DNA of 64,000 nt from Candidatus Woesearchaeota archaeon. Lineage in GTDB: Archaea; Nanobdellota; Nanobdellia; Woesearchaeales; SKIA01. Shown piece after piece: positions 13,393-49,338 of this stretch. Made by a program: the position numbers and the translations under genes. The notes beneath the pieces are model-generated. The model had not been told where the DNA came from. It saw only the letters and a program-made list of their open reading frames with translations, and searched no databases. Every line of letters begins with the position of its first letter. The stretch's first letter is position 1. Where the stretch lies: positions 1,248 to 65,247 of the forward strand of contig JAYVHA010000019.1 in NCBI GenBank assembly GCA_043771635.1. Reading direction: 5' to 3'.

Positions 13393-13842
13393 CTAATCTT
13401 CTTTGGGTGCTAGAATGCTTCCGCGGCATTTTGGAGAACCACATAGGCAAGCGTAAATAGTTTCGTCATCTTCTCCATCCGCGTCACGCTCATAAGCATA
13501 ATCGTAGAATAACTCTTCACCCTGCTCAATGTCGCGAATCGCGTCGATGAATACTTGTTGACCTTCGACTACAGGCTCACAGTTTGGATCGCATGAGTGA
13601 TTAATGAACTTTGCAGGATTGTCCGTGTCTTGGCCATCAATAACTACATGCTCGTCTACCGCAAACAAAAAAGTATGGTGACGTTCCATTGCTGCATCAT
13701 CATAACGTGCATCTGCTTCTTCATGCGAAATAATTTCGCCAGTGTATTCAATAATTCGCGTACCACTAGGGATTCTTTTTTTTGCAAACGCCCCCTCACC
13801 TTGGATAGGGGAATTTCGTACTTCAAACCATTGATTCATCAT
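13393..13842 (-). CDS. SET-domain protein lysine methyltransferase
   Basis: SET signatures NHSCDPN and GEELFYDY, plus a post-SET Cys cluster (CLCGSPKC). Confidence 0.8.
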   Translation of the reverse strand: MMNQWFEVRNSPIQGEGAFAKKRIPSGTRIIEYTGEIISHEEADARYDDAAMERHHTFLFAVDEHVVIDGQDTDNPAKFINHSCDPNCEPVVEGQQVFIDAIRDIEQGEELFYDYAYERDADGEDDETIYACLCGSPKCRGSILAPKED

Positions 13843-32253: not shown

Positions 32254-32260
32254 TGTGTTT

Positions 32261-33370
32261 TCACCGCTCGGCGACTGGCACTTTGGCGAGAAGCTCGTCG
32301 ATGATTTGATCTGCGCTTACGCCTTCCGCCTGTCCTTCATAACTTAAAATTAGACGGTGACGAAGTACATCGTGCGCCTTTTGTTTTACGTCTTCAGGCG
32401 TAACATAAGTGCGGCCGGAAACTAGCGCACGAGCTTTAGCCGCAATAAATAAACTAATTGTGGAACGTGGGGAGCCTCCGTAAGCAATATACTTTGCCCG
32501 TGTGAGCTTATATTGATCAGGATGTCGCGTTGCATCAACAATTCGTACTATGTATCGCTCAACTTTAGGATCCAAATAAACGTTGCGTACATCCTGCTGA
32601 ATTGCAACTATCATACGCGGGTCCAAAATAGGTTTTAAGTCATAATCCTCAAAGCGACGCGTAGTCATATTCTTATGCATTACTTCAATTTCCTCCTCAG
32701 GAGGCAAGTAGCCCATTACTACTTTGAATAAAAAGCGGTCAACTTGCGCTTCAGGCAACGGGTAAGTACCAATATTTTCTACAGGGTTCTGTGTTGCCAT
32801 TACGAAAAAAGGTTGTGGAAGCGGGAATGTTTGGTTTCCAATAGTTACTTGCTTCTCCTGCATTGATTCAAGAAGTGCTGACTGAACCTTCGGCGGCGCA
32901 CGGTTTATTTCGTCAGCAAGTACGAAATTCGCAAAAATTGGACCTTTAATTGTGTAAAAGCCTTTACCTTCTTCGTACGTAGTAATACCAACGATGTCTG
33001 TCGGAAGAAGGTCAGGAGTAAACTGAATACGCTTGAAGTCACAACCCGTCACACGTGCAAGTGAGCGAACAGTAAGCGTTTTTGCAATGCCTGGCAAACC
33101 CTCGACAAGTACGTGTCCGTTTGCCACAAGGGCTTCAATAAGATTAGTTATAACTACTTGTTGCCCTACAATAATCTTGGAGAGTTCTTCACGTACAAGC
33201 GCAATGCGCTGCTGATACACAGCAACGCGCGCAATAAAAGCAGGGTCTTGAGCATTTATAGCTTCTTGACCTAAGGGGGTTAGTGGTAAACTCTGCGCAA
33301 TAGAAGTTACCAACGCACTTGCGGATACACTATTCTGCATTGAAGGCGGTAGTGCTGCGGTTGGTGACAC
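32261..33370 (-). CDS. moxR: MoxR-family AAA+ ATPase
   Basis: Walker A in GHVLVEGLPGIAKT, plus TPDLLPTDIVG. Confidence 0.9.
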   Translation of the reverse strand: MSPTAALPPSMQNSVSASALVTSIAQSLPLTPLGQEAINAQDPAFIARVAVYQQRIALVREELSKIIVGQQVVITNLIEALVANGHVLVEGLPGIAKTLTVRSLARVTGCDFKRIQFTPDLLPTDIVGITTYEEGKGFYTIKGPIFANFVLADEINRAPPKVQSALLESMQEKQVTIGNQTFPLPQPFFVMATQNPVENIGTYPLPEAQVDRFLFKVVMGYLPPEEEIEVMHKNMTTRRFEDYDLKPILDPRMIVAIQQDVRNVYLDPKVERYIVRIVDATRHPDQYKLTRAKYIAYGGSPRSTISLFIAAKARALVSGRTYVTPEDVKQKAHDVLRHRLILSYEGQAEGVSADQIIDELLAKVPVAER

Positions 33371-34131: not shown

Positions 34132-37100
34132 TTATTTCTGCCTCGCATAAAATATTACTAGCGTTGCCCCGATAACAATTAGTGCAATTAGTAAACCACC
34201 AAGCGCCCAGTTTAGCGTACTCCAAGCTGCAAGTCCTTCAATTCCCGCAGGTTGTTGTAACTCCTGCCTACGTATAGTTTTTAGATACGCGCAGCCGTCA
34301 GTTGCAGCTTCTAGTAGCTCGGCAGCGCGCATATTGTCCCCACTAGCAATTGCGACTTCTGCTTGATCAACAAGTTCGGCAAGTTCTCCACACACAGGGT
34401 CTTGTGAGAGCAAGTCGCGAGCACTCGTAACTTTGGTGTTTACTGCGTCACCAGTGCTGGTGCGCTCTAAGCTGTTAAGAAATAATACAGCACTATCATT
34501 GAAACTCGGCTCTCCGACAACTGCAGTCACTATAATTTCAAATGTACCGCCGAGCTTATAATTCTTAATTGCGAGCGACGTGTTAAACGTCTCATCGGGC
34601 GCAAGCTCTTTTACAGTATTAGTAATAAACCCGAGTTCTACTTCAGCCTCAGATGTTGCAGTCAAGTCAATATCCTTAAGGGTCAAGTTTCCAGTATTCA
34701 CTAGTGCAATTGGAACGATAACAGTTGCATTTTCATACACTGTAAGCGGCTTCGGCACAATCAAGTTTATTGCGTATGGCTGGGGCCTTGGAATTGGCTT
34801 AATTACAACAGCACCGCCACCACCACCACCACCACCACCACCGCCAGAACTTGAACTCGAACTACTCGAGCTCTCCTCTTCTTCAGGATTATAGAAAATA
34901 GTGTAAGTAATAATATTGGAATAAAGACTGTAAGCACTATCCGCAGTAGTGGCGAGGTAAGTAAATGTAATACTGCCTGATGACGCAGGAGTTATTGTAA
35001 CGTCAGAGTCTACAAATGCTGCAGTAAAATATGCATTCGCTGATACAGAGTATACTAGCGTATTAATTTCGCTTCCATCAATAGCCAAGTTAGAGTCAAG
35101 ATCGTCATCAGGATCAATTATACTAAGTTCGTTGTTTAGTAGCGTAGTATCGTTAATTGTCCGGTTTCCGAGATTAGAAACGAGTATTGGGGCGCGTTTC
35201 ACGTTACGGACTGTGGTATTCCACATGAATGAATCATTAGCTAAAAGATTGTCTTCGACAACAGCCATTATTTCGTGTACACCTGCATCGAAGAAATCAA
35301 AACTTGCGGAATAGGCCGGGTTTGATGCAGATGGCGACGCAACAAGCATACCGTTCGAATAATATTTTACGGTCATGTTAGCAAGCACACTATCAGGATC
35401 TGTGAATGAAATATTGTAAACAACTGTAGTGTTTTCAGAGGCATTAATGAGCGTTATTGCGTTACTTGTAGTAACTATTGTGTTGTTTACTTGCGCCGAG
35501 CCATTGAGATAAGGACGAGCACCTGTAATAACAGGCGGAGCTGAACCGTTGACCACGGCGAACGTTACATTTTGACTCGTAAATGCTCCTAGCGCGTCCG
35601 TCACAGCGATATTAACTTCGTACGAGCCAATGTCTGCAAGTACAGGCGTAAATTGAATACGGCCTGTGTAAGCGTTTAATAGAGTAATATTGAAAAGGCC
35701 AGTATTTGGTCCAGCTATATCCGCTGTGAAGTTTATTGTGTCACCAATATTACGCTGATCAACATCAGTCATAATTACGTCCCAAGTTTTGCTTACATCT
35801 ATCACCACAGGCGCAGAAAGTGTAAGTACATTCGTGATATTGTCTCGGTTACTGTCAAAGAATGGCGCATCATTAGTATTGTTTACTTGAAGTGTGAAAA
35901 TCTGGGAATCACTAGCTCCCCATCGATCAGTTACAGTCAGTAGCAGAGAATAGTTCGATACCTCATTATTTGCATAGGTGTGATTCAACCTGCTAGTATT
36001 CACAGATAGCCAAGTTACATCAGCTAGCGAATCATTGAAAGAGAAAGTGAGATTTTCACCCGCATCATCATCAAGCGCCGCTAATTCGATCGTACAAGGC
36101 AGATCTTCTGCGCACGTCCTATTAGTTATCGGCACTAACACCGGCGCGGCGTTAGCATATACCGTAATGTTAAGTGTGCGCGTTACTGAAGCTAACGCGA
36201 TGTCTTGTGCAGTTATGCCGACTAATCGCCTCCCAACATCCCCAGCACCGGGTGTCGCCGTAATTAGGCCGCTGCTCGCTCCGACAGTGAATAGCGAATC
36301 ATTACTCGTGAAGGTTAGTGTATCACCCGCATAGGTTAGTTCGTCAACATCACTCGCATTTACAACATATGCGAATGCAATATCTTGCGCAGCACTTAAA
36401 GCACTAGCATTTTTTTGGCCTAAATAGTTCGGAGACTCAGCACTTATTTCAGCTATAATAGGGACATCGTTTGTGTTAGTAAGATTGAATGTTATATTAT
36501 AGCTAGTGGTGGAGCGGAAGACACCTGCTGCTGTATAGTCGGAGACAGAAAGCCTTACAGATCTACAAATGATATGATTATTCGTTAGAGTTACGTTTAT
36601 GATTCCGATAGCGCCAGTACTACTGTTCGAAGTAGTATTGACAGACCAAGGGTTCGTTATTGAGCAACCTGGACTGGCTACAGAAAAGAATAACTGATCC
36701 GCAGGATTAGTATCGTTTGCCAGTATAATATACTCGAATAAGGTACCTTGTGTACCATTTACTGCCGGAGTAGACGTGAATACAGAGGCATTGTTCGGCT
36801 CAGTAACTAGCACAGTAAATGTAGTAGTTGCATTCTTCATAGGGTTTGACGCTTGCCAAGCAACAATACTTACATTGTACAACCCAGCGTCGAGGCTAGT
36901 TGGATAACCTAGTGCGAAAGATACGTTCGCACTAAAATTACTCGTAGGCAACAGCGTTAAAGTTCCGTTTGATGTTATAGTGAAATTTAAAGGATCACTC
37001 TCTTCGTCTGAAGCAGTTATAGATAGACTGAAACCTTGTCCGGAAGTGACGTTTTGATTTCCAGGACTTATAATAATTGGAATGTCATCGAATTCAACGA

Positions 37101-37797
37101 CTTCATATACTATGTTCGAGCCACCATAAGTTTCACCATCAAACGCCAGAATCGCCATGGTGTGATTACCAACCTTACTTGCAGTAGGAGTTGCTGATAT
37201 ATCCCCATCATTGTCTATTGTAAATAATGAAGTGCCATTGTACAGGCTACTATTAAGATCACTTGATAAAAATAGCAGAATAGTGTCACCATCGGCGTCA
37301 GTTGCAGTAGCAGTAGCCGAATAAGTCTGGTCTTCAGTTAAAGACTGCAAGGTTGTAGGGAACGTAATTACGGGCGGAGAGTTAGAAATCAAGACTGCAG
37401 TGGCATTTTGCGCAACTGAAGCAGTAATATTAGACACTGTAGCCTCGCAGCGCCAATATTCACCTTTAGATGTACTTATAGGTTCTATTGAACCATTTAC
37501 TCCTGTGGCCGTTGCTACACCATTAGTGAGAGGCAGTGTTTCAGTGTCGCCAATCCAAAGTAAGTTATTCTGATACCACGAAATATTTGCAGTTAAGGTA
37601 CCATTTCCAGTTGCATTCACGATACAAGCCAATGTGCTGGCGGTGCCTGGCGAGGCAGGAGTAACACTTACGCTAACGATATTTAACGCGCGTACTTCTG
37701 GCATAAATAGCACAACACTTAGCGTAATTAAAAGTAAAGTTAACACAGTTTGCGAAGCAAAAGCTTCTCCGCTTGTACCAGTCTGCTTAGAAGTCAT
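34132..37797 (-). CDS. Giant (1221 aa) cell-surface glycoprotein with Ig-like/cadherin-like beta-sandwich repeats, a poly-Ser/Gly linker and a C-terminal TM anchor
   Basis: N-terminal signal/anchor. More than 50 N-x-S/T sequons. An S9G12 linker at 34800-34870. C-terminal hydrophobic helix followed by a basic tail (YARQK). Confidence 0.7.
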   Translation of the reverse strand: MTSKQTGTSGEAFASQTVLTLLLITLSVVLFMPEVRALNIVSVSVTPASPGTASTLACIVNATGNGTLTANISWYQNNLLWIGDTETLPLTNGVATATGVNGSIEPISTSKGEYWRCEATVSNITASVAQNATAVLISNSPPVITFPTTLQSLTEDQTYSATATATDADGDTILLFLSSDLNSSLYNGTSLFTIDNDGDISATPTASKVGNHTMAILAFDGETYGGSNIVYEVVEFDDIPIIISPGNQNVTSGQGFSLSITASDEESDPLNFTITSNGTLTLLPTSNFSANVSFALGYPTSLDAGLYNVSIVAWQASNPMKNATTTFTVLVTEPNNASVFTSTPAVNGTQGTLFEYIILANDTNPADQLFFSVASPGCSITNPWSVNTTSNSSTGAIGIINVTLTNNHIICRSVRLSVSDYTAAGVFRSTTSYNITFNLTNTNDVPIIAEISAESPNYLGQKNASALSAAQDIAFAYVVNASDVDELTYAGDTLTFTSNDSLFTVGASSGLITATPGAGDVGRRLVGITAQDIALASVTRTLNITVYANAAPVLVPITNRTCAEDLPCTIELAALDDDAGENLTFSFNDSLADVTWLSVNTSRLNHTYANNEVSNYSLLLTVTDRWGASDSQIFTLQVNNTNDAPFFDSNRDNITNVLTLSAPVVIDVSKTWDVIMTDVDQRNIGDTINFTADIAGPNTGLFNITLLNAYTGRIQFTPVLADIGSYEVNIAVTDALGAFTSQNVTFAVVNGSAPPVITGARPYLNGSAQVNNTIVTTSNAITLINASENTTVVYNISFTDPDSVLANMTVKYYSNGMLVASPSASNPAYSASFDFFDAGVHEIMAVVEDNLLANDSFMWNTTVRNVKRAPILVSNLGNRTINDTTLLNNELSIIDPDDDLDSNLAIDGSEINTLVYSVSANAYFTAAFVDSDVTITPASSGSITFTYLATTADSAYSLYSNIITYTIFYNPEEEESSSSSSSSSGGGGGGGGGGGAVVIKPIPRPQPYAINLIVPKPLTVYENATVIVPIALVNTGNLTLKDIDLTATSEAEVELGFITNTVKELAPDETFNTSLAIKNYKLGGTFEIIVTAVVGEPSFNDSAVLFLNSLERTSTGDAVNTKVTSARDLLSQDPVCGELAELVDQAEVAIASGDNMRAAELLEAATDGCAYLKTIRRQELQQPAGIEGLAAWSTLNWALGGLLIALIVIGATLVIFYARQK

Positions 37798-38259: not shown

Positions 38260-40434
38260 CTAAGGTTTCTTACTGCCTAGGCCAAGTCTAAGCTCATCAT
38301 AAACACGTGCAAGGTCATCATAAATTTCGCGCTGCTCCGCTAAAGTTGCTTTTGCGTACCATGATTCAAGCACTTGATAGAGCGCTTGGGCGAGCTCCTC
38401 TTTGTTGAACTGGATTGCGAGGTGCAATTGGTTAAGAAGCAAATAACCACGATCAAGCGCAGGAGTCTCTGCAGGAATGTCGCGTAGTTGCAAGTCCTGG
38501 TCTCGAGCACGTAAATCATCAACTGTGAGCACCGCTGTTTGATATACTAGTTCTCGCGTTTCTTGAATTAGAGAACGCAGTACAAGTTCATTCACTGGCA
38601 CGCCCGCAAATTCTAGAACATTTATACGGATAAAGAACTTTCGAAGTATCCGGGCTAAAAGCGGGTTCAAGCGATTAACATTTACCGCTTTAACTAATTC
38701 TTCATTTGTGAACTCGAACTCGAGTCCGAGTGACGCTTTGAAGTAGTCACGTATAATTCGCGCAAGCTCTTCTTGACTACGAATAATAGTCTGCGTACCG
38801 AGCCGCGCCTCTAACTCTGCAAGGCGACGAATAATTTCCTCCTTTGTTGCTGCAGCTAGCAGTATCTTTCTGTTGGTTCGTTGATGGCGTAGTAAAAATG
38901 CCATCAGAGCGCTTGCAATCTGACGTTTGAGAATTATTGCGAGTAAGAAAGCAACGGCTAGCGCTATTCCGCCGATGAGTAGCGCAGTAAACCAAGGGAA
39001 ACCTGCCGCAGGGAACTGCTCTTCAACGCAAGCCGCACAGAAAAGTCCACCGCAATCAATTTGCTCTTCCCCACCATTTCTTATTCCGTCGGAACAACTT
39101 GTACAAGGAGCGCAATCAGGCCCTCCACAGTCAAGCCCTTTTTCTTCACCATCCATTTTTCTGTTTGAACAAGTGTTGCACTGCTCGCAGAACGGACCGC
39201 CACAATCCACACCTTCTTCAAAACCATTTTGGATACCATCAGTGCACAATGTACAAGCAGAGCATACTGCGCCACCGCAGTCAACACCCGTTTCATCTTG
39301 ATTCAGTATACCGTCTGCACAGTTAGGCACGTACCCGCATGGGCGAACTTCCGTGCGCGTAACAGAGCCAGGACACTGCTTAGTATCAATACAAGAGCGC
39401 CAGGAAAAGCCCGCACGGTACTCATCAATACTAGGCGACGCACCAGGTGCAGGAGTGTATAATATATCCCCCCGCACACCTGTAATCACTATGTTTGCTG
39501 GATTTGCAGGCGAAACTCGAACGCTGCGCGCTACTTGACAAGCGCTCCAATCATAACAGAAGTAGTTCTCAAAACAAACAGGGTTTGTTGAAGTGCGTGA
39601 GGCGCCACCACCGCCACCAGCTCCACCACCACCGCCTCCACCACCGCCGCTTGAGGACGAGCTAGAGGAACCACCAGAACTGCCTGACGACGGCGGCGGA
39701 CAAGTTACGTTTAACTTTACAGTATTACTTATTGCACTTAGATTAGTCGGATCTGTTGCATTGAATACAACGCTTTCTACACCGCACCAACCGGACGCAG
39801 GTGTAAGCGTTACTTCTCCAGCAGTGAAAGCAATACCAATATTAGAATTACCAGTCACAGAGTATGCTAAAATATCAGCATTCGGATCAATAAAATAATT
39901 ATCGAGATCAAACGCTACAAGCACAGTTCCATACTGCCAGGTTTGATTTGGAATATTTTGTGCGAGAAACGGAGTATTCAAATTTTGGGAAATGGTGAAT
40001 GTATTCAAGTTTGTAGTTATAGCGTTTGTACAGCCCGAACCATCGTCCACAGTAAGTAAAAGAGTGTAAGTGCCAATCTGAGATGAATTTGGCGTAAACG
40101 CAAATGTATGAGTTGAGCTGGAGAATAACGCGAGTCCCGTAGCTGGACCGGATAGCGCAGCAGATGAGAAAGCAAAACTTACTTGGACTGGATCAGAGGC
40201 AGTCATTGTGCATGAGTAAGGAGTATCCACATAGGCGTTCATAGTACAAGAAGATAGGTTTAGCGTCGGCGGCGTGTTTACACAAATAGTCAATTGCCCA
40301 TTAGATGTAACTCTACCAGTAGTAGACGCATCACGTACTAGGATATACGCATTCTGCGCCAAGACTAGAACAACAAGAATAAGGAATGCAATCCACAAAT
40401 ACTTTGGATGCTTACGCACGGAGCACCACCTCAC
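38260..40434 (-). CDS. Single-pass surface protein. From N- to C-terminus: glycosylated ectodomain, poly-Ser/Gly linker, 4 Cys-rich 25-aa repeats, TM helix, ~230-aa cytoplasmic helical tail.
   Basis: Signal peptide. Linker SSGGSSSSSSSGGGGGGGGGAGGGGG. Repeat consensus C-x-DG-x2-N-x2-E-x-G-x-DCGG-x2-C-x2-C, four copies. TM segment FPWFTALLIGGIALAVAFLLAIIL. Confidence 0.65.
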   Translation of the reverse strand: MRWCSVRKHPKYLWIAFLILVVLVLAQNAYILVRDASTTGRVTSNGQLTICVNTPPTLNLSSCTMNAYVDTPYSCTMTASDPVQVSFAFSSAALSGPATGLALFSSSTHTFAFTPNSSQIGTYTLLLTVDDGSGCTNAITTNLNTFTISQNLNTPFLAQNIPNQTWQYGTVLVAFDLDNYFIDPNADILAYSVTGNSNIGIAFTAGEVTLTPASGWCGVESVVFNATDPTNLSAISNTVKLNVTCPPPSSGSSGGSSSSSSSGGGGGGGGGAGGGGGASRTSTNPVCFENYFCYDWSACQVARSVRVSPANPANIVITGVRGDILYTPAPGASPSIDEYRAGFSWRSCIDTKQCPGSVTRTEVRPCGYVPNCADGILNQDETGVDCGGAVCSACTLCTDGIQNGFEEGVDCGGPFCEQCNTCSNRKMDGEEKGLDCGGPDCAPCTSCSDGIRNGGEEQIDCGGLFCAACVEEQFPAAGFPWFTALLIGGIALAVAFLLAIILKRQIASALMAFLLRHQRTNRKILLAAATKEEIIRRLAELEARLGTQTIIRSQEELARIIRDYFKASLGLEFEFTNEELVKAVNVNRLNPLLARILRKFFIRINVLEFAGVPVNELVLRSLIQETRELVYQTAVLTVDDLRARDQDLQLRDIPAETPALDRGYLLLNQLHLAIQFNKEELAQALYQVLESWYAKATLAEQREIYDDLARVYDELRLGLGSKKP

Positions 40435-40852
40435 GTGTAAAGTCTACATCCCAATGCCCGAGAAACGCCAAAGCATCAAGTTCACGATCCATCGGCACAA
40501 AAAATGCAGGTCTACCCAGCTTTTGTCCACCCCATTCGGGCAACAAACCTATGCGACCTTGCACTCCCATTAACGCGTGGCTAAACACCTTCTTCCGACC
40601 AGGGTTCAAACGAGCAAGTAAATAAGTGATTAGCGACCAGCTCCCGACCCCAGCCATTTTTCTGTATGATTGCCCATATCGATGCGAGTAGCCCCGCTCT
40701 AAAAACTCTCGCACGCGCGTATGAAGCTGTGATGCAGGCAGACTAATGCAACCTGGCACCCGCGTGGCACCCGCAGTAATAGCGAAATGAGTCTCACCAA
40801 CAGTAACTATGTCGATGACGTCAACCTGCTTCAGTAAACCACTGAATTGCAC
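40412..40852 (-). CDS. Hypothetical protein with Cys...His-x-Asp residues, possibly a papain-fold/transglutaminase-like cysteine peptidase
   Basis: ORF of 146 aa with a conserved-looking VPGCISLP and C-terminal GHWDVDF. The assignment is speculative. Confidence 0.25.
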   Translation of the reverse strand: MQFSGLLKQVDVIDIVTVGETHFAITAGATRVPGCISLPASQLHTRVREFLERGYSHRYGQSYRKMAGVGSWSLITYLLARLNPGRKKVFSHALMGVQGRIGLLPEWGGQKLGRPAFFVPMDRELDALAFLGHWDVDFTREVVLRA

Positions 40853-40983: not shown

Positions 40984-41418
40984 TCATTTATTAGGCGAAT
41001 AAGGCACTACATACAAAGTACCCTGGTAAGTGCCAAGCGGAGCATCGAGCGACGGACGCAAACTAATGTTTACCTCAGCAGGTAAAGTAGTAATACTGGG
41101 CTGTATTATGATCCACTCACTTCCTTTACCTCTTGCTAACACAAGTACTTGACGCTTGGCTTGCGCTTCTTGCGTCATGCTGCCAATGCCCGCCTCGACT
41201 TGCAAAGTACGCCAAGAGGCTCCTCCAGGACCTAGCTGACCAAGCCTAAATACATCTTTTCTAGTATCGACACCTGGTACGTCCGCAATTACAAATAGAT
41301 AGGGTATAGACTGAGTTCCGTCAGGAAATTTTTCATTACTTGCAGTCAAGATATACACGGAGGCAGCACTTATAGCACCAACAAAAAGAACTAGAAAAAT
41401 AACAGAGATCAAACGCAT
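40984..41418 (-). CDS. Small secreted protein
   Basis: N-terminal signal peptide (MRLISVIFLVLFVGAISAAS), 144 aa. Confidence 0.4.
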   Translation of the reverse strand: MRLISVIFLVLFVGAISAASVYILTASNEKFPDGTQSIPYLFVIADVPGVDTRKDVFRLGQLGPGGASWRTLQVEAGIGSMTQEAQAKRQVLVLARGKGSEWIIIQPSITTLPAEVNISLRPSLDAPLGTYQGTLYVVPYSPNK

Positions 41419-41422
41419 AATA

Positions 41423-42841
41423 TCATTTCCTCGTGCTTTGGGGACTTGGCTGTGGTGGCGCCCGAGGACTGTCAGGAATTACAGCGTTTGGCGCAGGCGA
41501 GGCAGACTTAGTAGTTTCAGTGTCTGAACCTGGACCCCCGCCTTCATCTTTGCGCCTATGGTAGCGCGAGATTGCAAACAAGATTACCGACGCAACTAGA
41601 ATTATTGCGATTATACCAACAATCAAGTCAGCAGCTGAGAGTTCAACTACAGAGTCCGCTCCAGCAGGAGCTTCATAAGTTGGCGGCTTAGGCGTTTCAT
41701 TAAACACAGCAATCGGCAACAACGCAGTTTTAGAGCCGCCAGGGAAATAAACTGTAACCGTTGCTAATGCCTGCCCTGGCAGTATAGAACGATCAGTTTC
41801 CCAGAAATTAGTCATAGCGCCAGGTTGAAACGGGTCAATAGCAATTGAAGGTGTCGTACTTGGAGTTGCTCCGAGAACTACAGTAGAGTAAACATTATCA
41901 AGACGTTGATTCCACAAACTCTCCACGTGCACAGTGTAGCGGTTTACAGGCTTATCCAAATAGAGCGGTCCTTCTAGTGCAACAATATCTACATCTTGAG
42001 TGCCTACTGCAAACGAACCATTTGATTCGGCAATAAGATTGTTGTATTCTAGTTTCGCCTGCAACTGATATTTACCTGGCGAATACCCGCTTGATGGAAT
42101 TAATTTGGTGAAATCCTTATTACTACTTCCCGCTATTTCCATCCCATCAAAAGTAAACACATCTTGTAACTCTCCTGCAGCACTTACAATGCGAACTGTT
42201 GCCCGCCCAGAAGTAATAGCCTCTGCACCAAGATTATTTACAAGTAATTTTAGCTGAGTATTCTGTCCTTGAGGAACACTAGGCGCACCAGCAGTAAGCT
42301 CAGCATATTGACCAGGGTATGGTTTCCAAAGAATTATTCTATACCCAACTTCAGTTCTAACTGCGAATGTACCGCCAGTGTCGTCCGGAGCACGTTCTGC
42401 AAAAAATACAAAAGTTGTATGAAAACCAGGAGTTGCAAGTTCTGCAGGGGCTACAAATGCTAACGGAACTGACGCGGTACCACGAGCAGGAATTCGAATA
42501 GGTTGCTTTACCGCAACGGAATTTTTTAATACACCTTCAACACGAACATCAACATCTACAGGCCCATCATTATTGTTAATTAGAGTAACAGTTAAGTCAC
42601 TGCGCTGATTAGGTTCAAAAGTAACATCGACGCGAGGGGGACTCACACCCATAGCCAGTACAGTAGGAAGCGAAGCGATCATGCTCAAAAGCAGCAAAGA
42701 ATAAACTAAGACCTTTGACGAGCTAACCAATTTTGTATTCGCTCTTGTCATGTTTGAAAAAAGCACATCATCGTTTAAAACGGTATTCTTATTACTATTA
42801 GGTTTAGCAATAAATAATAAATTTCTTGGAAGTAGGCTCAC
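41423..42841 (-). CDS. Surface protein with beta-sandwich (CARDB/DUF11-like) repeats and a C-terminal TM anchor with a ~50-aa cytoplasmic tail
   Basis: Signal peptide (likely start at the Met near 42751). C-terminal IVGIIAIILVASVILFAI followed by RYHRRKDEGGG. Confidence 0.5.
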   Translation of the reverse strand: MSLLPRNLLFIAKPNSNKNTVLNDDVLFSNMTRANTKLVSSSKVLVYSLLLLSMIASLPTVLAMGVSPPRVDVTFEPNQRSDLTVTLINNNDGPVDVDVRVEGVLKNSVAVKQPIRIPARGTASVPLAFVAPAELATPGFHTTFVFFAERAPDDTGGTFAVRTEVGYRIILWKPYPGQYAELTAGAPSVPQGQNTQLKLLVNNLGAEAITSGRATVRIVSAAGELQDVFTFDGMEIAGSSNKDFTKLIPSSGYSPGKYQLQAKLEYNNLIAESNGSFAVGTQDVDIVALEGPLYLDKPVNRYTVHVESLWNQRLDNVYSTVVLGATPSTTPSIAIDPFQPGAMTNFWETDRSILPGQALATVTVYFPGGSKTALLPIAVFNETPKPPTYEAPAGADSVVELSAADLIVGIIAIILVASVILFAISRYHRRKDEGGGPGSDTETTKSASPAPNAVIPDSPRAPPQPSPQSTRK

Positions 42842-42853
42842 TTCTCACTCACC

Positions 42854-43462
42854 TTAGATTGCAGAGAAGGTGAGAGTTGAGATGCCAGTGCAACCACCAG
42901 AGAAGCCTACAGCGTCTTGCGGTATAGTTACATTAACATACAACTGAAATGCTCCGGAAGTTGGCACGATTTGCGGACAAGCAAGGCGAGTTGTGCTGTC
43001 TAAGGTAGTCCACGAACTTACGTTTGTACCGTTGCAGCTAGTCGTTATGAACTGAAGTGTAGGGTTTGTGCCACCGATTAAGGTCGCAGCACTGCAACTG
43101 CTTGTTACGTTTACGGACGCGTTAACATTGCCTACATTTTGTACTCTAATAAACCGAGGCGTTACGTTATCACCAGTGCAATTCGCGCCAAACACTCCGT
43201 CACATGCAACTGCATCGTTTGTTGCACAAGTATAATTTGTACCTGATCTAGGAGTACAAGTTCCGAATGCAAGAGTCTTGTTTCCAGCATCTACTTGAAT
43301 GTTAAGTGCACTTGCAACAGTAAGTGACACGTTACCCGTGTCTGTTGTTGCGCGACCTGTAAGACCAGGCAATGCGTCGATACGGATTAAAAAAGATGCG
43401 GAAACTACTAAGAGTGCACCAATTACTAACATTGCTAATGCACTGTTTGAAAGTTCGCTCAT
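42854..43462 (-). CDS. Pilin-like or adhesin-like secreted glycoprotein, paralog 1
   Basis: N-terminal hydrophobic anchor MSELSNSALAMLVIGALLVV. Many NxS/T sequons. About 76% identical (151/199 aligned positions) to the adjacent paralog. Confidence 0.5.
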   Translation of the reverse strand: MSELSNSALAMLVIGALLVVSASFLIRIDALPGLTGRATTDTGNVSLTVASALNIQVDAGNKTLAFGTCTPRSGTNYTCATNDAVACDGVFGANCTGDNVTPRFIRVQNVGNVNASVNVTSSCSAATLIGGTNPTLQFITTSCNGTNVSSWTTLDSTTRLACPQIVPTSGAFQLYVNVTIPQDAVGFSGGCTGISTLTFSAI

Positions 43463-43483
43463 GGTATGTATCCTCTTGTAATT

Positions 43484-44101
43484 CTATATTGCTGTGAAGG
43501 TTAACGTTGACGTTCCTGTACAACCACCCGAGGAGCCTACTGCGTCCTGCGGGATTGTAACGTTCGAAAATAGTCTGAATGCTCCAGAAGTCGGCGCAAT
43601 TCTTGCACAAGCAAGAGTGGTTGTTGTACCTAGCGTAGTCCAAGTTGTAACGTTGGTCGCATTGCATTCAGTAGTCTGGAATTGAAGTTGAGGATTAGTT
43701 CCGCCAATTAAGGTTGCTGCAGTACAGGAGCTTGTTACGTTGACTGAGGCGTTGACGTTACCGACATTAACTACGCGGATGAATCGAATGCTTCCATTAT
43801 CACCAGTGCAGTTTGCACCAAACACTGCGTCACATGCAACTGCATCGTTTGAGGCGCAAGTATAGTTAGAGCCTGCACGAGGAGTACAAGTACCAAAGGC
43901 GATAGTGCTGTTACCTGGGTCTACTTGGATGTTAAGTGCGCTTGCGATAGACAACGAAACGTTTCCAGTATCAGAAGTTGCCCTCCCGGTAAGTCCGAAT
44001 GTTGTTCCATCACTATTGATAGTATACACCGTTGTGCCAACAGTAACAACCAGAGCGGCAAAAACGAGAAGTGCGAGAGTACTATTGGAAATTTCTGCCA
44101 T
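43484..44101 (-). CDS. Pilin-like or adhesin-like secreted glycoprotein, paralog 2
   Basis: MAEISNSTLALLVFAALVVTV anchor. Conserved GLTGRAT(S/T)DTGNVSL and CTPR(A/S)G(S/T)NYTCA(S/T)NDAVACD blocks. Confidence 0.5.
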   Translation of the reverse strand: MAEISNSTLALLVFAALVVTVGTTVYTINSDGTTFGLTGRATSDTGNVSLSIASALNIQVDPGNSTIAFGTCTPRAGSNYTCASNDAVACDAVFGANCTGDNGSIRFIRVVNVGNVNASVNVTSSCTAATLIGGTNPQLQFQTTECNATNVTTWTTLGTTTTLACARIAPTSGAFRLFSNVTIPQDAVGSSGGCTGTSTLTFTAI

Positions 44102-44103
44102 TG

Positions 44104-44316
44104 CTATTGTCCACCGGGAACGTTTAACTGTAAAGTGCCATCGACACCAGCGCGTTCACCAACTTGTAAATTAACTGTGCTATCTGCCACGCTTTGCGCG
44201 GGAGACGCAGACCTAGGGAGAGAATCATGCGCCATGAGCGAATACGTTCCGAAACCGCTTACTGCGATAACAAGAACAAGGAGAATCGCGACGACATTGC
44301 GGGAAACCTCAACCAT
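44104..44316 (-). CDS. 70-aa protein with an N-terminal hydrophobic anchor (pilin-like class III signal candidate)
   Basis: MVEVSRNVVAILLVLVIAVSGFG. The start lies 3 nt after the upstream stop. Confidence 0.35.
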   Translation of the reverse strand: MVEVSRNVVAILLVLVIAVSGFGTYSLMAHDSLPRSASPAQSVADSTVNLQVGERAGVDGTLQLNVPGGQ

Positions 44317-44435: not shown

Positions 44436-44828
44436 TTATTGTACGGGCGCAGGCACAGTGAAGTTAGCAGGCCTCGTTAATACTTCTTGAACACAGGCGA
44501 CTTCTTCGCATTGTGATGCTACAAAAGTAAGGTTGATGAATGAAAGCGGCACAGGAGTAACAGTACCCTCGATGTTTACTGAACACGAGCGGTTTTCTGC
44601 ACTGTCACCTGCGGCGACTGAGGCGCAATTCTTCGCAACCCAAGCAACTGGATCAACATATTTTCCACAAACTACTCGACTACACTCCCATTTATTGTTG
44701 GCGCTATCTGCACCAGCAATTTTAGCATCCCTACTTGACATGCTGAACGCAGTGAATGCGAGTGCAACTGCGAGAATTGCAATAAGTATGTACATAGTCA
44801 CGAAATGAGAGGATTTATTGCGTTCCAT
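44436..44828 (-). CDS. 130-aa secreted or anchored protein
   Basis: A charged N-terminus followed by a hydrophobic helix (MERNKSSHFVTMYILIAILAVALAF), then Cys-containing segments. Confidence 0.35.
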   Translation of the reverse strand: MERNKSSHFVTMYILIAILAVALAFTAFSMSSRDAKIAGADSANNKWECSRVVCGKYVDPVAWVAKNCASVAAGDSAENRSCSVNIEGTVTPVPLSFINLTFVASQCEEVACVQEVLTRPANFTVPAPVQ

Positions 44829-44829
44829 G

Positions 44830-46047
44830 TTAATTCCTATCCTTGCGAGTGTAGAATCGGTATATAAAATATGCTGCTAATATAGTAAGTAGAATTACCA
44901 GCACAATAGTAAATGCTCTGTTTGATGTAGCGCCTGGTTGAACCTCTACTGGACGTTCAATCGAATCTACACCTAGAATGATAGGGCGGGTTTCTTCTGA
45001 TACTTTATCTGCATAAATTAGCTTGGCTCTTAAAACCGCAGGACCAGCAGTAGCGCTTTTTGTCTCTAGAAACCCTGTAAAACGACCCTCGGCTAGAGGC
45101 ATAATTGTTTGTGAGGCGGAAGTTGCAGTACCTATAGTACTATTCTGCTCTAAAATAAACATAGCCTGTACTGGCAGCGGCGCACCCCACTCGTTTAATA
45201 CATCCACAGAAACGCGAAATGGATCACCCAGTCTAAATTCACCAAAATTAATTCCTAGTATTTTAACATTAAGCGCACCAACAATAATTTCGCTTGTTAC
45301 GCGTAGTTCTGTGGAACCATACGGAACTGACGCGACCGCAGTATACACACCAACAGCGCGAGGATTCCAAGATGCAACTAGATCGCGACTTTCACCTGGT
45401 AAAATTGTTACTTGAGCAAATTCCTGTCGTACCCCATCAAGCAAGATGGAAGATTGGGTGCTAATTGATTGAGTACCAACATTAAGTAAGTGTAGCGTGA
45501 TTAGTACTTCGCTCCCAACTATCCCGCTTGAACTCAGGAGCTCTCCAGTCAGAAACGCACCTTCTTTCGCTGTTTGAACTCGGATAACGTGCATAACCGC
45601 AGATGAAGCAGCCACTGTACCTGCACCAACTGCGCGCGACTCGAATAAAATGCCCGACTCGGAAGTACCAGGCACCGTGTTAGCAGGCAGACGTATTTGC
45701 ACTGGAATTGCACGTGATTCACCGGGCGAAATAACTACTGAAGGGGGCACATCAAGAGCGCCGCCAATAGCTAAAGCGCCTGTCGGCGAAATAGTAATTT
45801 CGAGAGCAGACGACTCATCGTTTCTGACTAATACATCATAGCGTACGACTTCGTTTGCACTGAAAGCTATTGTTTTACTTGCAGGACTTGCTGTGAGGGC
45901 AGACGCTGCACTAAGTGAACTTACAACCAAGATAACTAATAACATAACTAACTTAGCTCGAGAATTGGAATAATTCATTCTAAACTCGCTCCTAGAACAG
46001 TCAAGGTAGTATTTTTTGCACCTTGAGTCTCGCCTTGTGGAACCCAT
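44830..46047 (-). CDS. Surface protein with a beta-sandwich domain and a C-terminal TM anchor. The likely start is the Met near 45978.
   Basis: Signal peptide MNYSNSRAKLVMLLVILVVSSLSAASA. C-terminal FTIVLVILLTILAAYFIY followed by RFYTRKDRN. Confidence 0.5.
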   Translation of the reverse strand: MGSTRRDSRCKKYYLDCSRSEFRMNYSNSRAKLVMLLVILVVSSLSAASALTASPASKTIAFSANEVVRYDVLVRNDESSALEITISPTGALAIGGALDVPPSVVISPGESRAIPVQIRLPANTVPGTSESGILFESRAVGAGTVAASSAVMHVIRVQTAKEGAFLTGELLSSSGIVGSEVLITLHLLNVGTQSISTQSSILLDGVRQEFAQVTILPGESRDLVASWNPRAVGVYTAVASVPYGSTELRVTSEIIVGALNVKILGINFGEFRLGDPFRVSVDVLNEWGAPLPVQAMFILEQNSTIGTATSASQTIMPLAEGRFTGFLETKSATAGPAVLRAKLIYADKVSEETRPIILGVDSIERPVEVQPGATSNRAFTIVLVILLTILAAYFIYRFYTRKDRN

Positions 46048-47198
46048 ACTTTAAGTTCGAATTCGCGAAGCGCTCCGAGCGTTAGGTTACTTGTCAAACT
46101 AGTGTATCCGCTGGTTACGTTTATCCACGCGCTGCTATTTTCATCAGCATACTGGAAATAACTCGTGCTAAGGGCTTGGCTCACCCATAATGCAGCGTTT
46201 GCTTTGGCAGACGTAAGTACATCAACATTACCCGAGTTATTGTATACAAGAGGAGCAGGCGAGCTCGATAAAGTATCATTAGTACGGTTGGCTGTTGGGT
46301 CACTCGGAACAAGCGAGCCGAAATCAGTTGCGCCAGTGGTAAAGGTTATTCCAACGACACTTGGTATGCTAAAGTTAAATTGCGTTGCGTACGCACTGCA
46401 AGTATTACTTGTGTCGCAAGCGCGCACAGTCCAATTATACGCGCGGTCAACGCACAACTTGTCAATGCTCAAGTAGTATGCGGAACTACTGTTCTTTAGT
46501 GGAATAGCTGCGCATCCGCTTGGACTAGTAATATTCCACTGGTAAGTTACCGCATCACCATCAGGATCAGAGACATTTGTCCAGTTGAACGTCGGATAAC
46601 GTGATGAAACTGTGTAGTTATTATTTAGCGGGATTAGGAGCGTTGGTACTGACGGAGCGCTGTTTGATACGCTACCGCACACCTTTCGCGTGTACGCGTC
46701 ACAATCTCCAATATGGGCGTTTGTACTGTTACTGCCTTCAGCAGTGTTCGCGAGCGAGAGCATGCAACCGTATCCTGTCGAGCAAGCCGTATTGTTATAC
46801 TGAATCGACACAGTAGCTAGAGCTGCGGAAAAACACATACTAGTATTGTAGGTACTTTCGTTTGCTTGTTGTGCATGTGCATTGTCAGTGTCGGCAAGGC
46901 GCAGCCAAGTAGTCGCCGCGCCACCGCACGAAGTATTAAACGCACTTACTGCTACTGTAGTTGAATTGCAACATAAACTGTTCGCATATGTACCAACAGA
47001 AACATTTTGTCCGTGCGAATTATTCCATCCGCCAGTATCATTCGCCACACCTAGAAGTTTAATGGTGCTTGCACCACAAGAGCTACTCGCTACAAAGCTG
47101 CAGTTCAAATAACCGAGCGCGCTCGGTACGCTAGACAACAACAGCAAGGTTGCTACAACAAGTATACCTATCGGCCACATGCTAGCGGCAGAGTTCAT
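45975..47198 (-). CDS. Secreted Cys-rich, heavily N-glycosylated protein with a PTFNWTNVSDPDGDAVTYQW Ig/FN3-like repeat
   Basis: Signal peptide MWPIGILVVATLLLLSSVPSALG. About 40 NxS/T sequons. Many Cys residues. Confidence 0.5.
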   Translation of the reverse strand: MNSAASMWPIGILVVATLLLLSSVPSALGYLNCSFVASSSCGASTIKLLGVANDTGGWNNSHGQNVSVGTYANSLCCNSTTVAVSAFNTSCGGAATTWLRLADTDNAHAQQANESTYNTSMCFSAALATVSIQYNNTACSTGYGCMLSLANTAEGSNSTNAHIGDCDAYTRKVCGSVSNSAPSVPTLLIPLNNNYTVSSRYPTFNWTNVSDPDGDAVTYQWNITSPSGCAAIPLKNSSSAYYLSIDKLCVDRAYNWTVRACDTSNTCSAYATQFNFSIPSVVGITFTTGATDFGSLVPSDPTANRTNDTLSSSPAPLVYNNSGNVDVLTSAKANAALWVSQALSTSYFQYADENSSAWINVTSGYTSLTSNLTLGALREFELKVWVPQGETQGAKNTTLTVLGASLE

Positions 47199-48871
47199 TG
47201 CAGCGTTGCTCCACTAAGGAAACTGCCGGCAAGAAGTACGTCTCCTACTTGCGTTATTACGGCAGCATCAGTACCAGCTGCCGTGCGTATAACAAAGTCT
47301 CCACTTGTAGTTCGCTGCGGCGTTGTTCGCGCAGTTAACTTTCCTGCTGAGCGAAGTGCACCTTGTTCGTCGATTGATAGTGTGACAATTCCAGCACCGT
47401 CTTTTATGAGCCAGCCGCTCACTCCAGGTGTCGTACTAAATGTAGCGGCGCCGGTAACAACCATGGTCCCATATTTGTCAATTGCAGCTGCTGCACTGCC
47501 GTCTGCAGCTTCCACAACAAAGCGCCCACGACCACTGCGCAATAGCCACGCTGCACCTTGAGTGCCAGCTATGCATACACTATCAGTATATTCTGCGCCT
47601 GGCTGGTAAACAGTGCCATCTGCGACGCAGGCTGCTTGTGACGCAGCGCAGATTCCTCCTGTTAGTTCACCGTGGTACTGGCTTGTTAGACAAACGCCAC
47701 TTCCACACTGCGATCCTAAAGTACATGCCGCGCCGAGCGCAACTGTAACGCCAGGAATTACTTCCGGAGTATCTGGAACAGGAGCGGGTACAACTGGAAT
47801 TACAACAGGGGGCGCAACAGGCGGCACCGCAGTTATGGTAGTATTATTTGATTCATTTGTGCTATTAGTTGTTGCAACAATAGGAGGCGCAGGTGTAACG
47901 GGTGGCGTCACAACTGGTGGAGTCGTTACTGGATCAACTATTTCGTTGCTTGATGAATTAGTCTCGTTCGATGAATTAGTCTCAGTTGTTTCATTTTCAA
48001 GAGCGTGAGAAATTGGTTCTCCCCGCGTGCCGTATACAACGCGTTCAATGTAGAACTCTACAGCACCGCTCAGTTCAATATCTAGCGCCGCGCTTGCATT
48101 GAGCCCGGGCAGAGAGCAGGTTTCGACGCAAGCATTTAGAAATGCCACAGACTCGTCAGATTGCGCATTCGGCGCAGTTTCTGTGACTTCAGGAGTGTCA
48201 GTTTGTGGCGACGCAGGCAATGTTACTGCTCCAGGTTCACTTGGAGACAGCGTTTCAATTACAGTATCATCAGTAGTCACTCTTCCAGTTAGTCCGCTTG
48301 CACCCTCTTTCTCACTGTCGTATGATGCCACGAGCAACCGAGCATCCCCTAAACGCAAATATACTTTCGCCACCCCATCTCCGCTTGCAGTACCGTCGAT
48401 TCGCAACGACGAGAGAGGATCAGTAATTGAAAGTGGAACCGTTTCACTGCCAGTATAAACGCTGTCAAGTGGCAGCGCATAGAACGATTCATCTTGGCCA
48501 AAAGTGAACAAACCCGTTATAGCTCCAAAGTTTAATGCGATTAAAGCAGCAAACACAATTACAATTGCAAAAGGTACTGCTTTTCGGAGTCTAGGGTGTG
48601 ACGGCGGCTGCGCAGCAAGCATTGCCTCAGTACTTGCAAGATGCTCGTTCAAATCACGGATGACGTCTTTAGGATCTTTACCCGCGTACTCCCGCGCAAC
48701 GATCTGCTTCGCCATTTCAGGCGTTAATTTACCAGACGCTACTTCGCGATCAATTTCAGCTGTAAATTCGTTTACTGCGTCACGCTCTTTCTCGAACTTC
48801 TCGATAAGTTTTTCGAGTTCAGCTCTCATAAGCGCACCACTTTCTTTATAGCACGTTGATACGTGGTCCAA
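47195..48871 (-). CDS. Type II membrane protein: ~95-aa cytoplasmic coiled-coil N-terminus, one TM helix, Pro/Val/Thr-rich stalk, Cys/Gly-rich C-terminal ectodomain
   Basis: TM segment AVPFAIVIVFAALIALNFGAITGLF. The stalk has PPVVTPPVTPAPPIV...PPVAPPVVIPVVPAPVPDTPEV. 4-nt overlap with the downstream gene. Confidence 0.5.
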   Translation of the reverse strand: MDHVSTCYKESGALMRAELEKLIEKFEKERDAVNEFTAEIDREVASGKLTPEMAKQIVAREYAGKDPKDVIRDLNEHLASTEAMLAAQPPSHPRLRKAVPFAIVIVFAALIALNFGAITGLFTFGQDESFYALPLDSVYTGSETVPLSITDPLSSLRIDGTASGDGVAKVYLRLGDARLLVASYDSEKEGASGLTGRVTTDDTVIETLSPSEPGAVTLPASPQTDTPEVTETAPNAQSDESVAFLNACVETCSLPGLNASAALDIELSGAVEFYIERVVYGTRGEPISHALENETTETNSSNETNSSSNEIVDPVTTPPVVTPPVTPAPPIVATTNSTNESNNTTITAVPPVAPPVVIPVVPAPVPDTPEVIPGVTVALGAACTLGSQCGSGVCLTSQYHGELTGGICAASQAACVADGTVYQPGAEYTDSVCIAGTQGAAWLLRSGRGRFVVEAADGSAAAAIDKYGTMVVTGAATFSTTPGVSGWLIKDGAGIVTLSIDEQGALRSAGKLTARTTPQRTTSGDFVIRTAAGTDAAVITQVGDVLLAGSFLSGATLQ

Positions 48872-49189: not shown

Positions 49190-49261
49190 CGTCCCCTGCC
49201 GGGATCGAACCGGCGACCTTTCGATTAACAGTCGAACGCTCTACCGCTGAGCTAAGGGGAC
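49190..49261 (-). tRNA. tRNA-Asn (anticodon GTT)
   Basis: Hand fold. Acceptor GTCCCCT/AGGGGAC. D-stem GCTC/GAGC. Anticodon stem TTCGA/TCGAA with loop CTGTTAA. T-arm GCCGG-TTCGATC-CCGGC. Confidence 0.85.
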
Positions 49262-49264
49262 TGA

Positions 49265-49338
49265 TGGACCCTCGGTGATTTGAACACCGGACCTCTCGAT
49301 TATCAGTCGAGTGCTCTACCAGGCTAAGCTAAGGGACC
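49265..49338 (-). tRNA. tRNA-Ile (anticodon GAT)
   Basis: Hand fold. D-stem GCTT/GAGC. Anticodon stem CTCGA/TCGAG with loop CTGATAA. T-arm CGGTG-TTCAAAT-CACCG. The acceptor has one T.T mismatch at 3-70 as read. Confidence 0.7.

Follow-up and report, generated by a model that had tools for sequence, protein, structure and literature searches.

We analyzed a 64,000-nucleotide stretch of a Candidatus Woesearchaeota genome (contig JAYVHA010000019.1 of assembly GCA_043771635.1; hereafter the window) and concentrated on two adjacent minus-strand genes for paralogous proteins of 205 and 202 amino acids (aa), the gene for a 70-aa protein directly upstream of them, and the co-directional cluster of surface-protein genes in which all three lie. 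Judging from their sequences, both paralogs are very probably secreted or surface-exposed, N-glycosylated, disulfide-containing, and "pilin-like" in a broad sense. The reading that we favor, tentatively, is that they are the repeating subunits of an extracellular fiber polymerizing by donor-strand complementation, the principle used by chaperone-usher pili, TasA fibers, archaeal threads, bundling pili, cannulae, and Tat-fimbriae. A donor-strand model accounts for more of the evidence than does a type IV pilin reading: the fold neighbors, an unpacked but conserved strand, a recurring motif, the paired paralogs, and the glycosylation signature. The elements on which the argument rests are as follows.

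43484-44101, minus strand: 205-aa subunit, whose N-terminus is the more canonical of the two; N-terminal tail and hydrophobic helix at residues 1-30, variable linker at 31-37, L-T-G-R-A motif with the conserved unstructured N-terminal strand at 38-57 (43931-43990), beta-sandwich at 58-205 (43487-43930)
42854-43462, minus strand: 202-aa subunit, paralogous to the former, whose helix and linker have diverged; LTGRA motif and strand at about 43301-43360
44104-44316, minus strand: 70-aa small protein with a subunit-type N-terminal tail and helix
44317-44435, minus strand: intergenic region of 119 nt with the TATA-like CTTTTATAAA, read directly from the sequence

A large, unnamed family of probable surface glycoproteins

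The tandem open reading frames (ORFs) of 202, 205, 70, and 130 aa recognized in an initial annotation of this DNA are all present on the minus strand, and its figure of about 76% identity between the two larger proteins came close, as we measured 73% by BLASTP (E 7e-97), 74% by MAFFT alignment, and 80% over the mature domain. Each protein begins with the short polar N-terminus described there (MAEISNST and MSELSNSA) followed by a hydrophobic helix of ~20 residues, which AlphaFold2 (AF2) places at residues 6-30. The conserved cysteines number eight per subunit, at the same aligned positions in both, and the N-x-S/T sequons number 11 and 10. In the mature parts, 10 sequons stand against 3.7-4.0 expected from 20,000 composition-preserving shuffles (P <= 0.001), and their density of 5-6 per 100 aa is about tenfold that in seven cytoplasmic proteins of the window (0.57 per 100 aa). 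The 70-205-202 arrangement was found on nine independent contigs from ENA, Logan, and NCBI assemblies; an assembly artifact, which the initial annotation had raised as a possible origin of the duplication, is thereby rejected.

While a word-indexed search returned only 34 relatives, an exhaustive profile search of 1.84 billion representatives recovered at least 1,526 clusters (at 50% identity) with E <= 1e-3, and 835 with E <= 1e-10. Almost all of the best 150 listed matches are 180-250 aa long, nearly all of them full-length, and the one family member that carries a name is a "hypothetical protein [Candidatus Woesearchaeota archaeon]". Neither Pfam nor NCBIfam gave an assignment above threshold, the Pfam search covering the two subunits plus 32 and 65 family members and the NCBIfam scan of the window proteins returning nothing for the subunits. 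Sequence and profile searches of the PDB with the subunits and the family yielded chance matches only (7kmx, E 0.66; 7s8u, E 0.0075). A scan for the family pattern in one genome per GTDB species produced no confirmed relative, and the lineage is therefore poorly represented in that species set.

The family layout and its conservation were derived from 178 representatives. An N-terminal tail, M-A-[ED]-I-S-N-[KR]-T-L-A, with N6 conserved at 94%, leads into a conserved hydrophobic helix, roughly LLLVAAIVVSLGGT, in which the polar or small residues S20, G23, and T24 are conserved. Beyond a poorly conserved linker with indels (0-10 residues) lies the near-invariant motif [ILV]-T-G-x-A (T38 88%, G39 98%, A 83%), and then a strand, T-S-D-T-G-x-V-x-L-x-I, with G46 conserved at 93% and alternating hydrophobic residues at 48, 50, and 52, before the beta-rich domain begins. 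Mean conservation per column is 2.50 bits in the tail, 2.35 in the helix, 1.11 in the linker, 2.22 in the motif and strand, and 1.71 in the domain.

The predicted fold resembles donor-strand fiber subunits

Using the family alignment, AF2 modeled the full-length subunit with a predicted local distance difference test score (pLDDT) of 84.2; in this model residues 6-30 form a helix, 31-57 a coil (pLDDT 53-59), and the remainder a beta-sandwich. A second model, starting from T38, reached a pLDDT of 88.6 and a predicted template modeling score (pTM) of 0.82, with its first 20 residues unstructured. The 20 residues after T-G-x-A are unstructured in both models (pLDDT 53-74) and yet more conserved than the sandwich (2.22 against 1.71 bits); because this segment is conserved but unpacked in the monomer, it resembles a donor strand.

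Both models were compared with the PDB using Foldseek, and the top 50 matches of each were considered. About 34 of the top 36 matches of the mature-part model are donor-strand-complemented fiber subunits, and those found among the structural matches include CfaB, FimG/FimA, CS17/CS20, Csu, CupB6, PapA/PapE, TLP-1a, CanA, the Saci_0406 thread subunit, and AbpA, together with the Hyperthermus cannula subunit Hyper2. TLP-1a, an environmental fibril, is a donor-strand-exchange tube (PMC11494351). Chaperone-usher pilins gave the lowest Foldseek E-values, at template modeling (TM) scores of 0.3-0.5 and 10-16% identity, and the best superposition was with the Pyrodictium cannula subunit 9h8b (E 6e-3, probability 1.00, TM 0.58, root-mean-square deviation 5.2 A). 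Further matches include 9bab (TM 0.51) and, at E 0.025-0.064, 7uii, TasA (8aur), the thread (7pnb), and the bundling pilus (7ueg). No archaeal type IV pilin or archaellin appeared in the top 50 of either search, and a search of a viral structure library was uninformative. The initial annotation had proposed structure prediction as a way to tell a pilin fold from a beta-sandwich adhesin: the outcome is a beta-sandwich, but one of the kind found in donor-strand pilus subunits.

The N-terminal signal departs from that of type IV pilins

A resemblance to archaeal type IV pilins had been suggested in the initial annotation, together with the observation that the canonical [KR][GA] prepilin site is missing. 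The observation is correct, the window proteins reading S-T|L and S-A|L across the would-be cleavage site, whereas the suggested identity fared poorly. Read in this way, the subunits would be type IV pilin-like proteins with a non-canonical class III signal, cleaved after E-I-S-N-[KR]-[TAG] by a divergent prepilin peptidase; the hydrophobic helices would be retained and make up a pilus or pseudopilus core, with the 70-aa protein as a minor pilin. Archaeal pilins have beta-sandwich heads and are N-glycosylated, and the present proteins share with them a glycosylated beta-rich head as well as a short N-terminal tail and conserved helix common to several proteins of the operon. Such a tail, with the most conserved hydrophobic helix common to major and small proteins, is a hallmark of pilin sets. 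Moreover, the would-be -2 position is K or R in 70% of the family and 14% carry A or G at -1 (as in SNKALA, SNKGLA, and SNRGLA); A or G at -1 with K or R at -2 fits the published FlaFind-type pattern.

In the other 86%, however, the -1 residue is neither G nor A and is mostly T (the column holds T 61%, A 11%, S 8%, V 5%, I 4%, and G 3%), and the S-T and S-A of the window proteins come without K or R. The Pilin_N, Class_IIIsignal, and Arch_flagellin models went unmatched even at permissive thresholds (E <= 1 for the window proteins, E <= 10 for 32 members, E <= 1 for 65 members). Between helix and head lies a flexible linker of variable length and low pLDDT, in place of a continuous alpha-1 packed on the head, and the top 50 of both Foldseek searches lacked archaeal pilins and archaellins, as described above. 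None of the ~50 ORFs scanned in the 64-kb window encodes a PilB/ArlI ATPase, PilC/ArlJ, or a prepilin peptidase, and all three kinds of gene, ATPase, platform protein, and peptidase, are likewise absent from the genes listed for related loci. In the second copy, moreover, the helix diverges fast (dN, the nonsynonymous divergence, is 0.55 over the first 40 codons). Four of five defining features of type IV pilins thus fail, the exception being the conserved N-terminal helix common to major and small proteins, and we consider this interpretation improbable.

Shared N-terminal elements and the 70-aa protein

The 70-aa protein opens with a subunit-like tail and helix, MVEVSRNVVAILLVLVIAVSGFGT, and continues with the short strand motifs STVNLQV and GTLQLNV. 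Among 1,365 ORFs, a profile of subunit residues 2-28 matched this protein at E 1.7e-5 and its counterparts in four other genomes, with a fifth at E 0.078 and no other ORF. The claim that the neighboring proteins share the N-terminal architecture of the subunits thus stands for the 70-aa protein but only loosely for the 130-aa one, which has a generic transmembrane segment and no match to the profile. Across 20 homologs of the small protein, the helix and a linker are followed by G-x-V-x-L-x-[IV], a P-rich turn, and a second G-x-V-x-L-x-[IV]; on inspection of the pattern, these strands appear to repeat the N-terminal strand of the subunits twice, without a globular domain. The T-G-x-A motif is missing from the 70-aa protein. 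When a profile of the N-terminal 42 residues was run against 5.8 billion proteins, it matched one 51-aa protein and 20 small proteins (68-84 aa), the subunits themselves not being listed; with so short a query, and hence low power, it gave no evidence that the N-terminal signal acts as a general sorting tag on other passenger domains.

The motif after the linker recurs within the operon. Among the 51 genes of the window, T-G-x-[AVF]-[TSV] has ten matches, eight of which fall in four operon proteins, and each of these has one soon after its transmembrane helix. These matches include residue 38 in the 205-aa subunit, 35 in the 202-aa subunit, 39 in a 724-aa protein, and 119 and 195 in a 558-aa protein (both larger proteins are described below). 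Orthologs, too, carry the motif or an S-G variant behind the helix. It could mark a processing site that these proteins have in common or the point at which a shared donor strand begins.

A donor-strand model weighed against a fixed surface complex

In the donor-strand model, the conserved N-terminal tail and hydrophobic helix would insert the precursor in the membrane with its C-terminal part outside. The subunit would be released at [ILV]-T-G-x-A, beyond the variable linker, at signal-peptidase-I-compatible sites after G39 or A41. The domain would become N-glycosylated and disulfide-bonded, and the freed N-terminal strand (T-G-x-V-x-L-x-I) would enter the beta-sandwich of a neighboring subunit, building the fiber. 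The 70-aa protein, which would keep its helix because it has no T-G-x-A motif, may tether or nucleate the fiber at the membrane through its two copies of the strand motif. The 558-aa and 724-aa proteins, with the same post-helix motif, might join the structure as base or adhesin, and the immunoglobulin (Ig)-domain proteins with C-terminal anchors (405, 472, and 144 aa) might provide an assembly platform or chaperones. Such a fiber system would plausibly serve adhesion. We infer each of these steps, from export topology, T-G-x-A cleavage, and glycosylation through strand exchange and anchoring by the 70-aa protein to the roles of the Ig proteins and adhesion.

Several results weigh against this model. 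Searches of Pfam, NCBIfam, and PDB sequences provide no link to a known fiber family, and in PDB profile searches 8aur, 7uii, 7ueg, and 7pnb were all absent from the matches. Alignment by hhalign against a 30-sequence TasA alignment gave a probability of 0.9%, with only the signal and strand region aligned weakly, and homology to TasA is therefore not claimed; PF12389 was not hit either. No structural match reaches E <= 1e-3, the best being 3.9e-3 and 4.5e-3 with TM scores mostly of 0.3-0.5, and AF2 placed the N-terminal strand in no groove. A strand-motif profile of 18 residues was significant for the subunits only, the small proteins scoring E 0.3-6. As to processing, [ILV]-T-G-x-A fits the -3/-1 rule at two positions, but the n-region is acidic, the helix conserved, and the c-region long; the 8-13 residues from the helix to the proposed cleavage site are long for signal peptidase I, and where the subunits have A41 the 558-aa and 724-aa proteins have V or F. 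The 64-kb window holds no homolog of a signal peptidase, chaperone, or usher, and no S24 or S26 peptidase domain was detected in the operon or elsewhere in the window. CanX loci likewise have no dedicated signal peptidase (10.1101/2024.12.30.630787), and the missing SipW-like peptidase is therefore not decisive. Cleaved Sec signals are not usually the most conserved part of a family, as tail and helix are here (2.5 and 2.35 bits), and a membrane helix that stays in place would fit this better; the helix common to major and small proteins is the main unexplained point for cleaved-signal models. The evidence for the fiber model, finally, is computational throughout.

The conserved helix is the starting point of the main alternative, in which the subunits would be membrane-anchored surface glycoproteins that form no fiber. 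The N-terminal helix would be an uncleaved signal-anchor, carrying the sandwich on a flexible stalk within a multi-protein cell-surface complex such as a coat, an S-layer-associated module, or an adhesion or contact complex, with the membrane proteins of the operon as partners. Conservation peaking in the tail and helix, with S20, G23, and T24 among the conserved residues, suggests specific helix-helix contacts in the membrane, and the same helix occurs in the 70-aa protein. A fixed trans-membrane complex would be expected to include bitopic proteins with cytoplasmic domains, and the operon encodes several (558, 724, and 146 aa); the individual structural matches to fiber subunits are weak, and no dedicated peptidase gene lies nearby. 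This alternative nevertheless leaves unexplained why a segment disordered in the monomer is strongly conserved, why the strand motif occurs on a 70-aa protein without a globular domain, and why the structural neighbors are nearly exclusively strand-exchange fibers and not generic Ig domains, and the near-invariant [ILV]-T-G-x-A resembles a processing site. A fixed surface complex appears to us rather unlikely. We return to the donor-strand model: the family probably works like donor-strand fibers, although membership in the TasA superfamily is not claimed.

Organization and conservation of the gene cluster

The subunit genes belong to a co-directional cluster that begins at 48871 and reaches at least as far as 38260, probably as far as 34132, in the order 558, 407, 405, 130, 70, 205, 202, 472, 144, 146, 724, and 1221 aa. 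Its other members are the following.

47195-48871, minus strand: 558-aa protein, first gene of the cluster; cytoplasmic coiled-coil N-terminus, one transmembrane helix, and an extracellular part
45975-47198, minus strand: 407-aa protein, secreted and Cys-rich, with 24 sequons; conserved in the cluster
44830-46047, minus strand: 405-aa ORF (~371-405 aa); Ig-like domains between a signal peptide and a transmembrane anchor at the C-terminus
44436-44828, minus strand: 130-aa protein with a transmembrane segment at its N-terminus and six cysteines in its extracellular domain; conserved in the operon
41423-42841, minus strand: 472-aa protein with a signal peptide, Ig-like domains, a C-terminal transmembrane anchor, and a Pro-rich tail
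40984-41418, minus strand: 144-aa protein that starts with a transmembrane or signal segment and has one Ig-like domain
40412-40852, minus strand: 146-aa ORF for a small conserved cytoplasmic protein of no known family
38260-40434, minus strand: 724-aa protein with an N-terminal transmembrane helix, then STTGRVTSNGQLTICVNTPP (the post-helix motif of the subunits), then a Big_9 Ig domain
34132-37797, minus strand: 1221-aa surface protein that has 54 sequons and contains Big_9 and PKD domains; the conserved cluster ends with it, ahead of a MoxR operon

Genes are tightly spaced around the subunits, with gaps of 2 nt (70-205), 21 nt (205-202), and 12 nt (202-472), and Shine-Dalgarno-like GGTGG/AGAGGA sequences precede the genes of this region. 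The only sizeable gap in the upstream half of the cluster carries the TATA-like CTTTTATAAA ~25-33 nt upstream of the 70-aa start codon, which, read from the sequence, may be an internal promoter for the 70-205-202 unit, possibly boosting subunit expression. A scan for sigma-70 promoters and terminators, which is not meaningful for an archaeon, did not rise above shuffles. At their longest, the ORFs of the 405-aa and 407-aa genes have 73 nt in common; because gene calls in other assemblies begin later (371 or 382 aa), the true start of the 405-aa gene probably lies downstream of 46047.

Synteny of the ~12 genes is kept in relatives from 31% to 61% GC, and the core of the operon persists even around a family member that scores just E 4e-29 against the family profile. 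The 472-aa gene lies directly downstream of the subunit genes at every related locus examined, and its product, a distant paralog of the 405-aa protein, matches CARDB at E 2.9e-5, with no match in a PDB search; the domain scan of the 405-aa protein gave sub-threshold matches to FixG_C, CARDB, and choice-of-anchor D. In a distant operon (L090), the counterparts of the 472-aa and 144-aa proteins (8678-9805 and 9816-10223) show sub-threshold matches that include WxLIP_HBD (E 4.6e-4) and, for the ortholog of the 144-aa protein, the PapD-like PF14874 (E 0.017) and ASH (E 0.11). Such similarities hint that the Ig-domain neighbors may be related to Gram-positive cell-surface-complex proteins or to chaperone-like Ig domains.

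Among the larger proteins, the 558-aa product carries AITGLFTF after its helix and a second motif, GLTGRVTTDD, at residue 195. In the 724-aa protein, the Big_9 domain is followed by a long poly-Gly/Ser tract, four tandem Cys-rich DCGGxxC repeats, and a second transmembrane segment with a 220-residue helical cytoplasmic tail; its orthologs at three related loci (L003, L087, and L088) share its N-terminal layout. Homologs of the 146-aa protein occur in four of the five related operons read, including L087 7997-8512, L088 4076-4525, and L003 12549-12848, with the core motif F-[ST]-H-[AS]-L-x-G ... W-[GN]-G-x-K-[VL]-G; the protein has no match in Pfam, NCBIfam, or the PDB, and may regulate the system or be its partner in the cytoplasm.

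Directly upstream of the first cluster gene, on the same strand, are tRNA-Asn(GTT) and tRNA-Ile(GAT) (49190-49338, minus strand). At its other end, the cluster adjoins a MoxR (AAA_3)-DUF58-VWA/BatA operon (30392-33370, minus strand). A MoxR gene follows the surface cluster in three related contigs as well, a recurrence that suggests a functional link between MoxR and the cluster. Archaeal markers in the window comprise an A-type ATPase, CDC48, GatD/GatE, CDP-archaeol synthase, a helicase with archaeal helicase domain 4, and a type IA topoisomerase. The B subunit of the ATPase is nearest (69-70% identity) to proteins from metagenome-assembled genomes of Woesearchaeota and Nanoarchaeota, and its catalytic A subunit (2271-4280, plus strand) is unusually long at 669 aa. 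With moderate confidence, we regard the host as a DPANN archaeon of Woesearchaeota-like affinity. The window also encodes a SET-domain protein (13393-13842, minus strand; E 1.5e-25) and, within this archaeal genome, an N-acetylmuramoyl-L-alanine amidase (63080-63913, minus strand; Amidase_2, E 2e-9). Amidases of this kind are peptidoglycan hydrolases, and the gene would be of interest if the organism interacts with bacteria.

An old duplication under purifying selection

The initial annotation had viewed the pair as a recent tandem duplication and had suggested diversifying selection, neither of which was borne out. The comparison of nonsynonymous and synonymous divergence that it advised gave dN = 0.22, a saturated dS of 2.3, and a ratio (omega) of ~0.09; the pair is therefore old and under purifying selection, and both recent duplication and diversifying selection are rejected. 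Copy number in related genomes, a further check that it had called for, shows pairs in most of them, including a very distant one at 31% GC. Divergence between the copies falls mostly in the first 40 codons (nucleotide identity 0.49, dN 0.55). In relatives, the small gene stands before the pair or between the copies, and one genome has a single subunit copy. In a tree of the mature domain, the copies group by genome in six of the seven pair-carrying genomes, while the N-terminal region of one copy is closer to its equivalents in other genomes than to the copy beside it. Such a pattern is in keeping with concerted evolution or with repeated duplication, and not with recent diversification.

Comparison with known donor-strand filaments

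With the archaeal filaments of the TasA superfamily (CanX/CanA, Hyper2, AbpA, AbpX, and Saci_0406), the family shares subunits of ~150-200 residues and, according to the models, an N-terminal helix followed by an extended tail and a beta-sandwich or jelly-roll head, probably heavily N-glycosylated. The two side-by-side paralogs recall Saci_0405/0406 of the Sulfolobus thread. More generally, two paralogs per locus resemble the pairs of major and minor pilins in threads (PMC9715654) and Tat-fimbriae (PMC12337348), and the sequon enrichment matches the heavy glycosylation of archaeal threads (PMC9715654). Unlike these TasA-superfamily filaments, the family has no detectable sequence or profile similarity to them (PF12389 unmatched, hhalign 0.9%), its helix and tail are strongly conserved and common to the 70-aa partner, no signal peptidase I gene is adjacent, the accessory genes are others, and the host belongs to DPANN and not to Thermoproteota or Bacillota.

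Chaperone-usher pilins offer a further parallel in the predicted Ig-like fold with a conserved C-terminal strand, in the N-terminal extension, where a Gly is conserved and hydrophobic residues alternate, and in the presence of the same extension motif on several proteins of one operon; in contrast to them, no PapD_N, PapD_C, or Usher match was found among the operon proteins scanned. As an archaeon, the organism is not known to have an outer membrane, and an usher is therefore not expected. Haloarchaeal Tat-fimbriae, encoded by TafA/TafE loci, are similar in their duplicated major and minor pilins, proposed tip and anchor, and strand donation, and their clusters also include a regulator (PMC12337348, PMC11821415). 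Here, in contrast, there is no twin-arginine motif, the operon yielded neither a TafD-like signal peptidase nor a DUF5305 protein, and the listed structural matches include no Tat-fimbria structure.

The known archaeal donor-strand classes are threads together with archaeal bundling pili (ABP), cannulae, and Tat-fimbriae (10.1101/2024.12.30.630787; PMC9715654; PMC12337348). Our full-text literature searches retrieved no description of DPANN donor-strand filaments or of this subunit family. To our knowledge, archaeal donor-strand filaments have been solved only since 2022, and all of them come from Thermoproteota or haloarchaea. More doubtfully, the family could be a fourth, DPANN-specific class of such filaments, acting as an organelle that attaches Woesearchaeota-like episymbionts to hosts or surfaces. 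A class of this kind would have its own sorting signal ([DE]-I-S-N-[KR]-T plus helix) and release motif ([ILV]-T-G-x-A); a 70-aa protein consisting of a helix and two donor strands would be its anchor or nucleator, and Ig-domain membrane proteins would replace chaperone, usher, and SipW.

The family is large and nameless in Pfam, NCBIfam, and the PDB, and its syntenic operon of ~12 genes encodes almost wholly surface and membrane proteins; should the fiber model prove wrong, it is still a surface glycoprotein module that is widespread, conserved, and worth naming. DPANN archaea are thought to live attached to other cells, and as far as we know few of the molecules that mediate this contact have been identified. 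If the fiber model is true, the cluster would define a candidate apparatus by which Woesearchaeota-like archaea attach, along with a new sorting or processing signal and a minimal anchor protein built of a helix plus donor strands.

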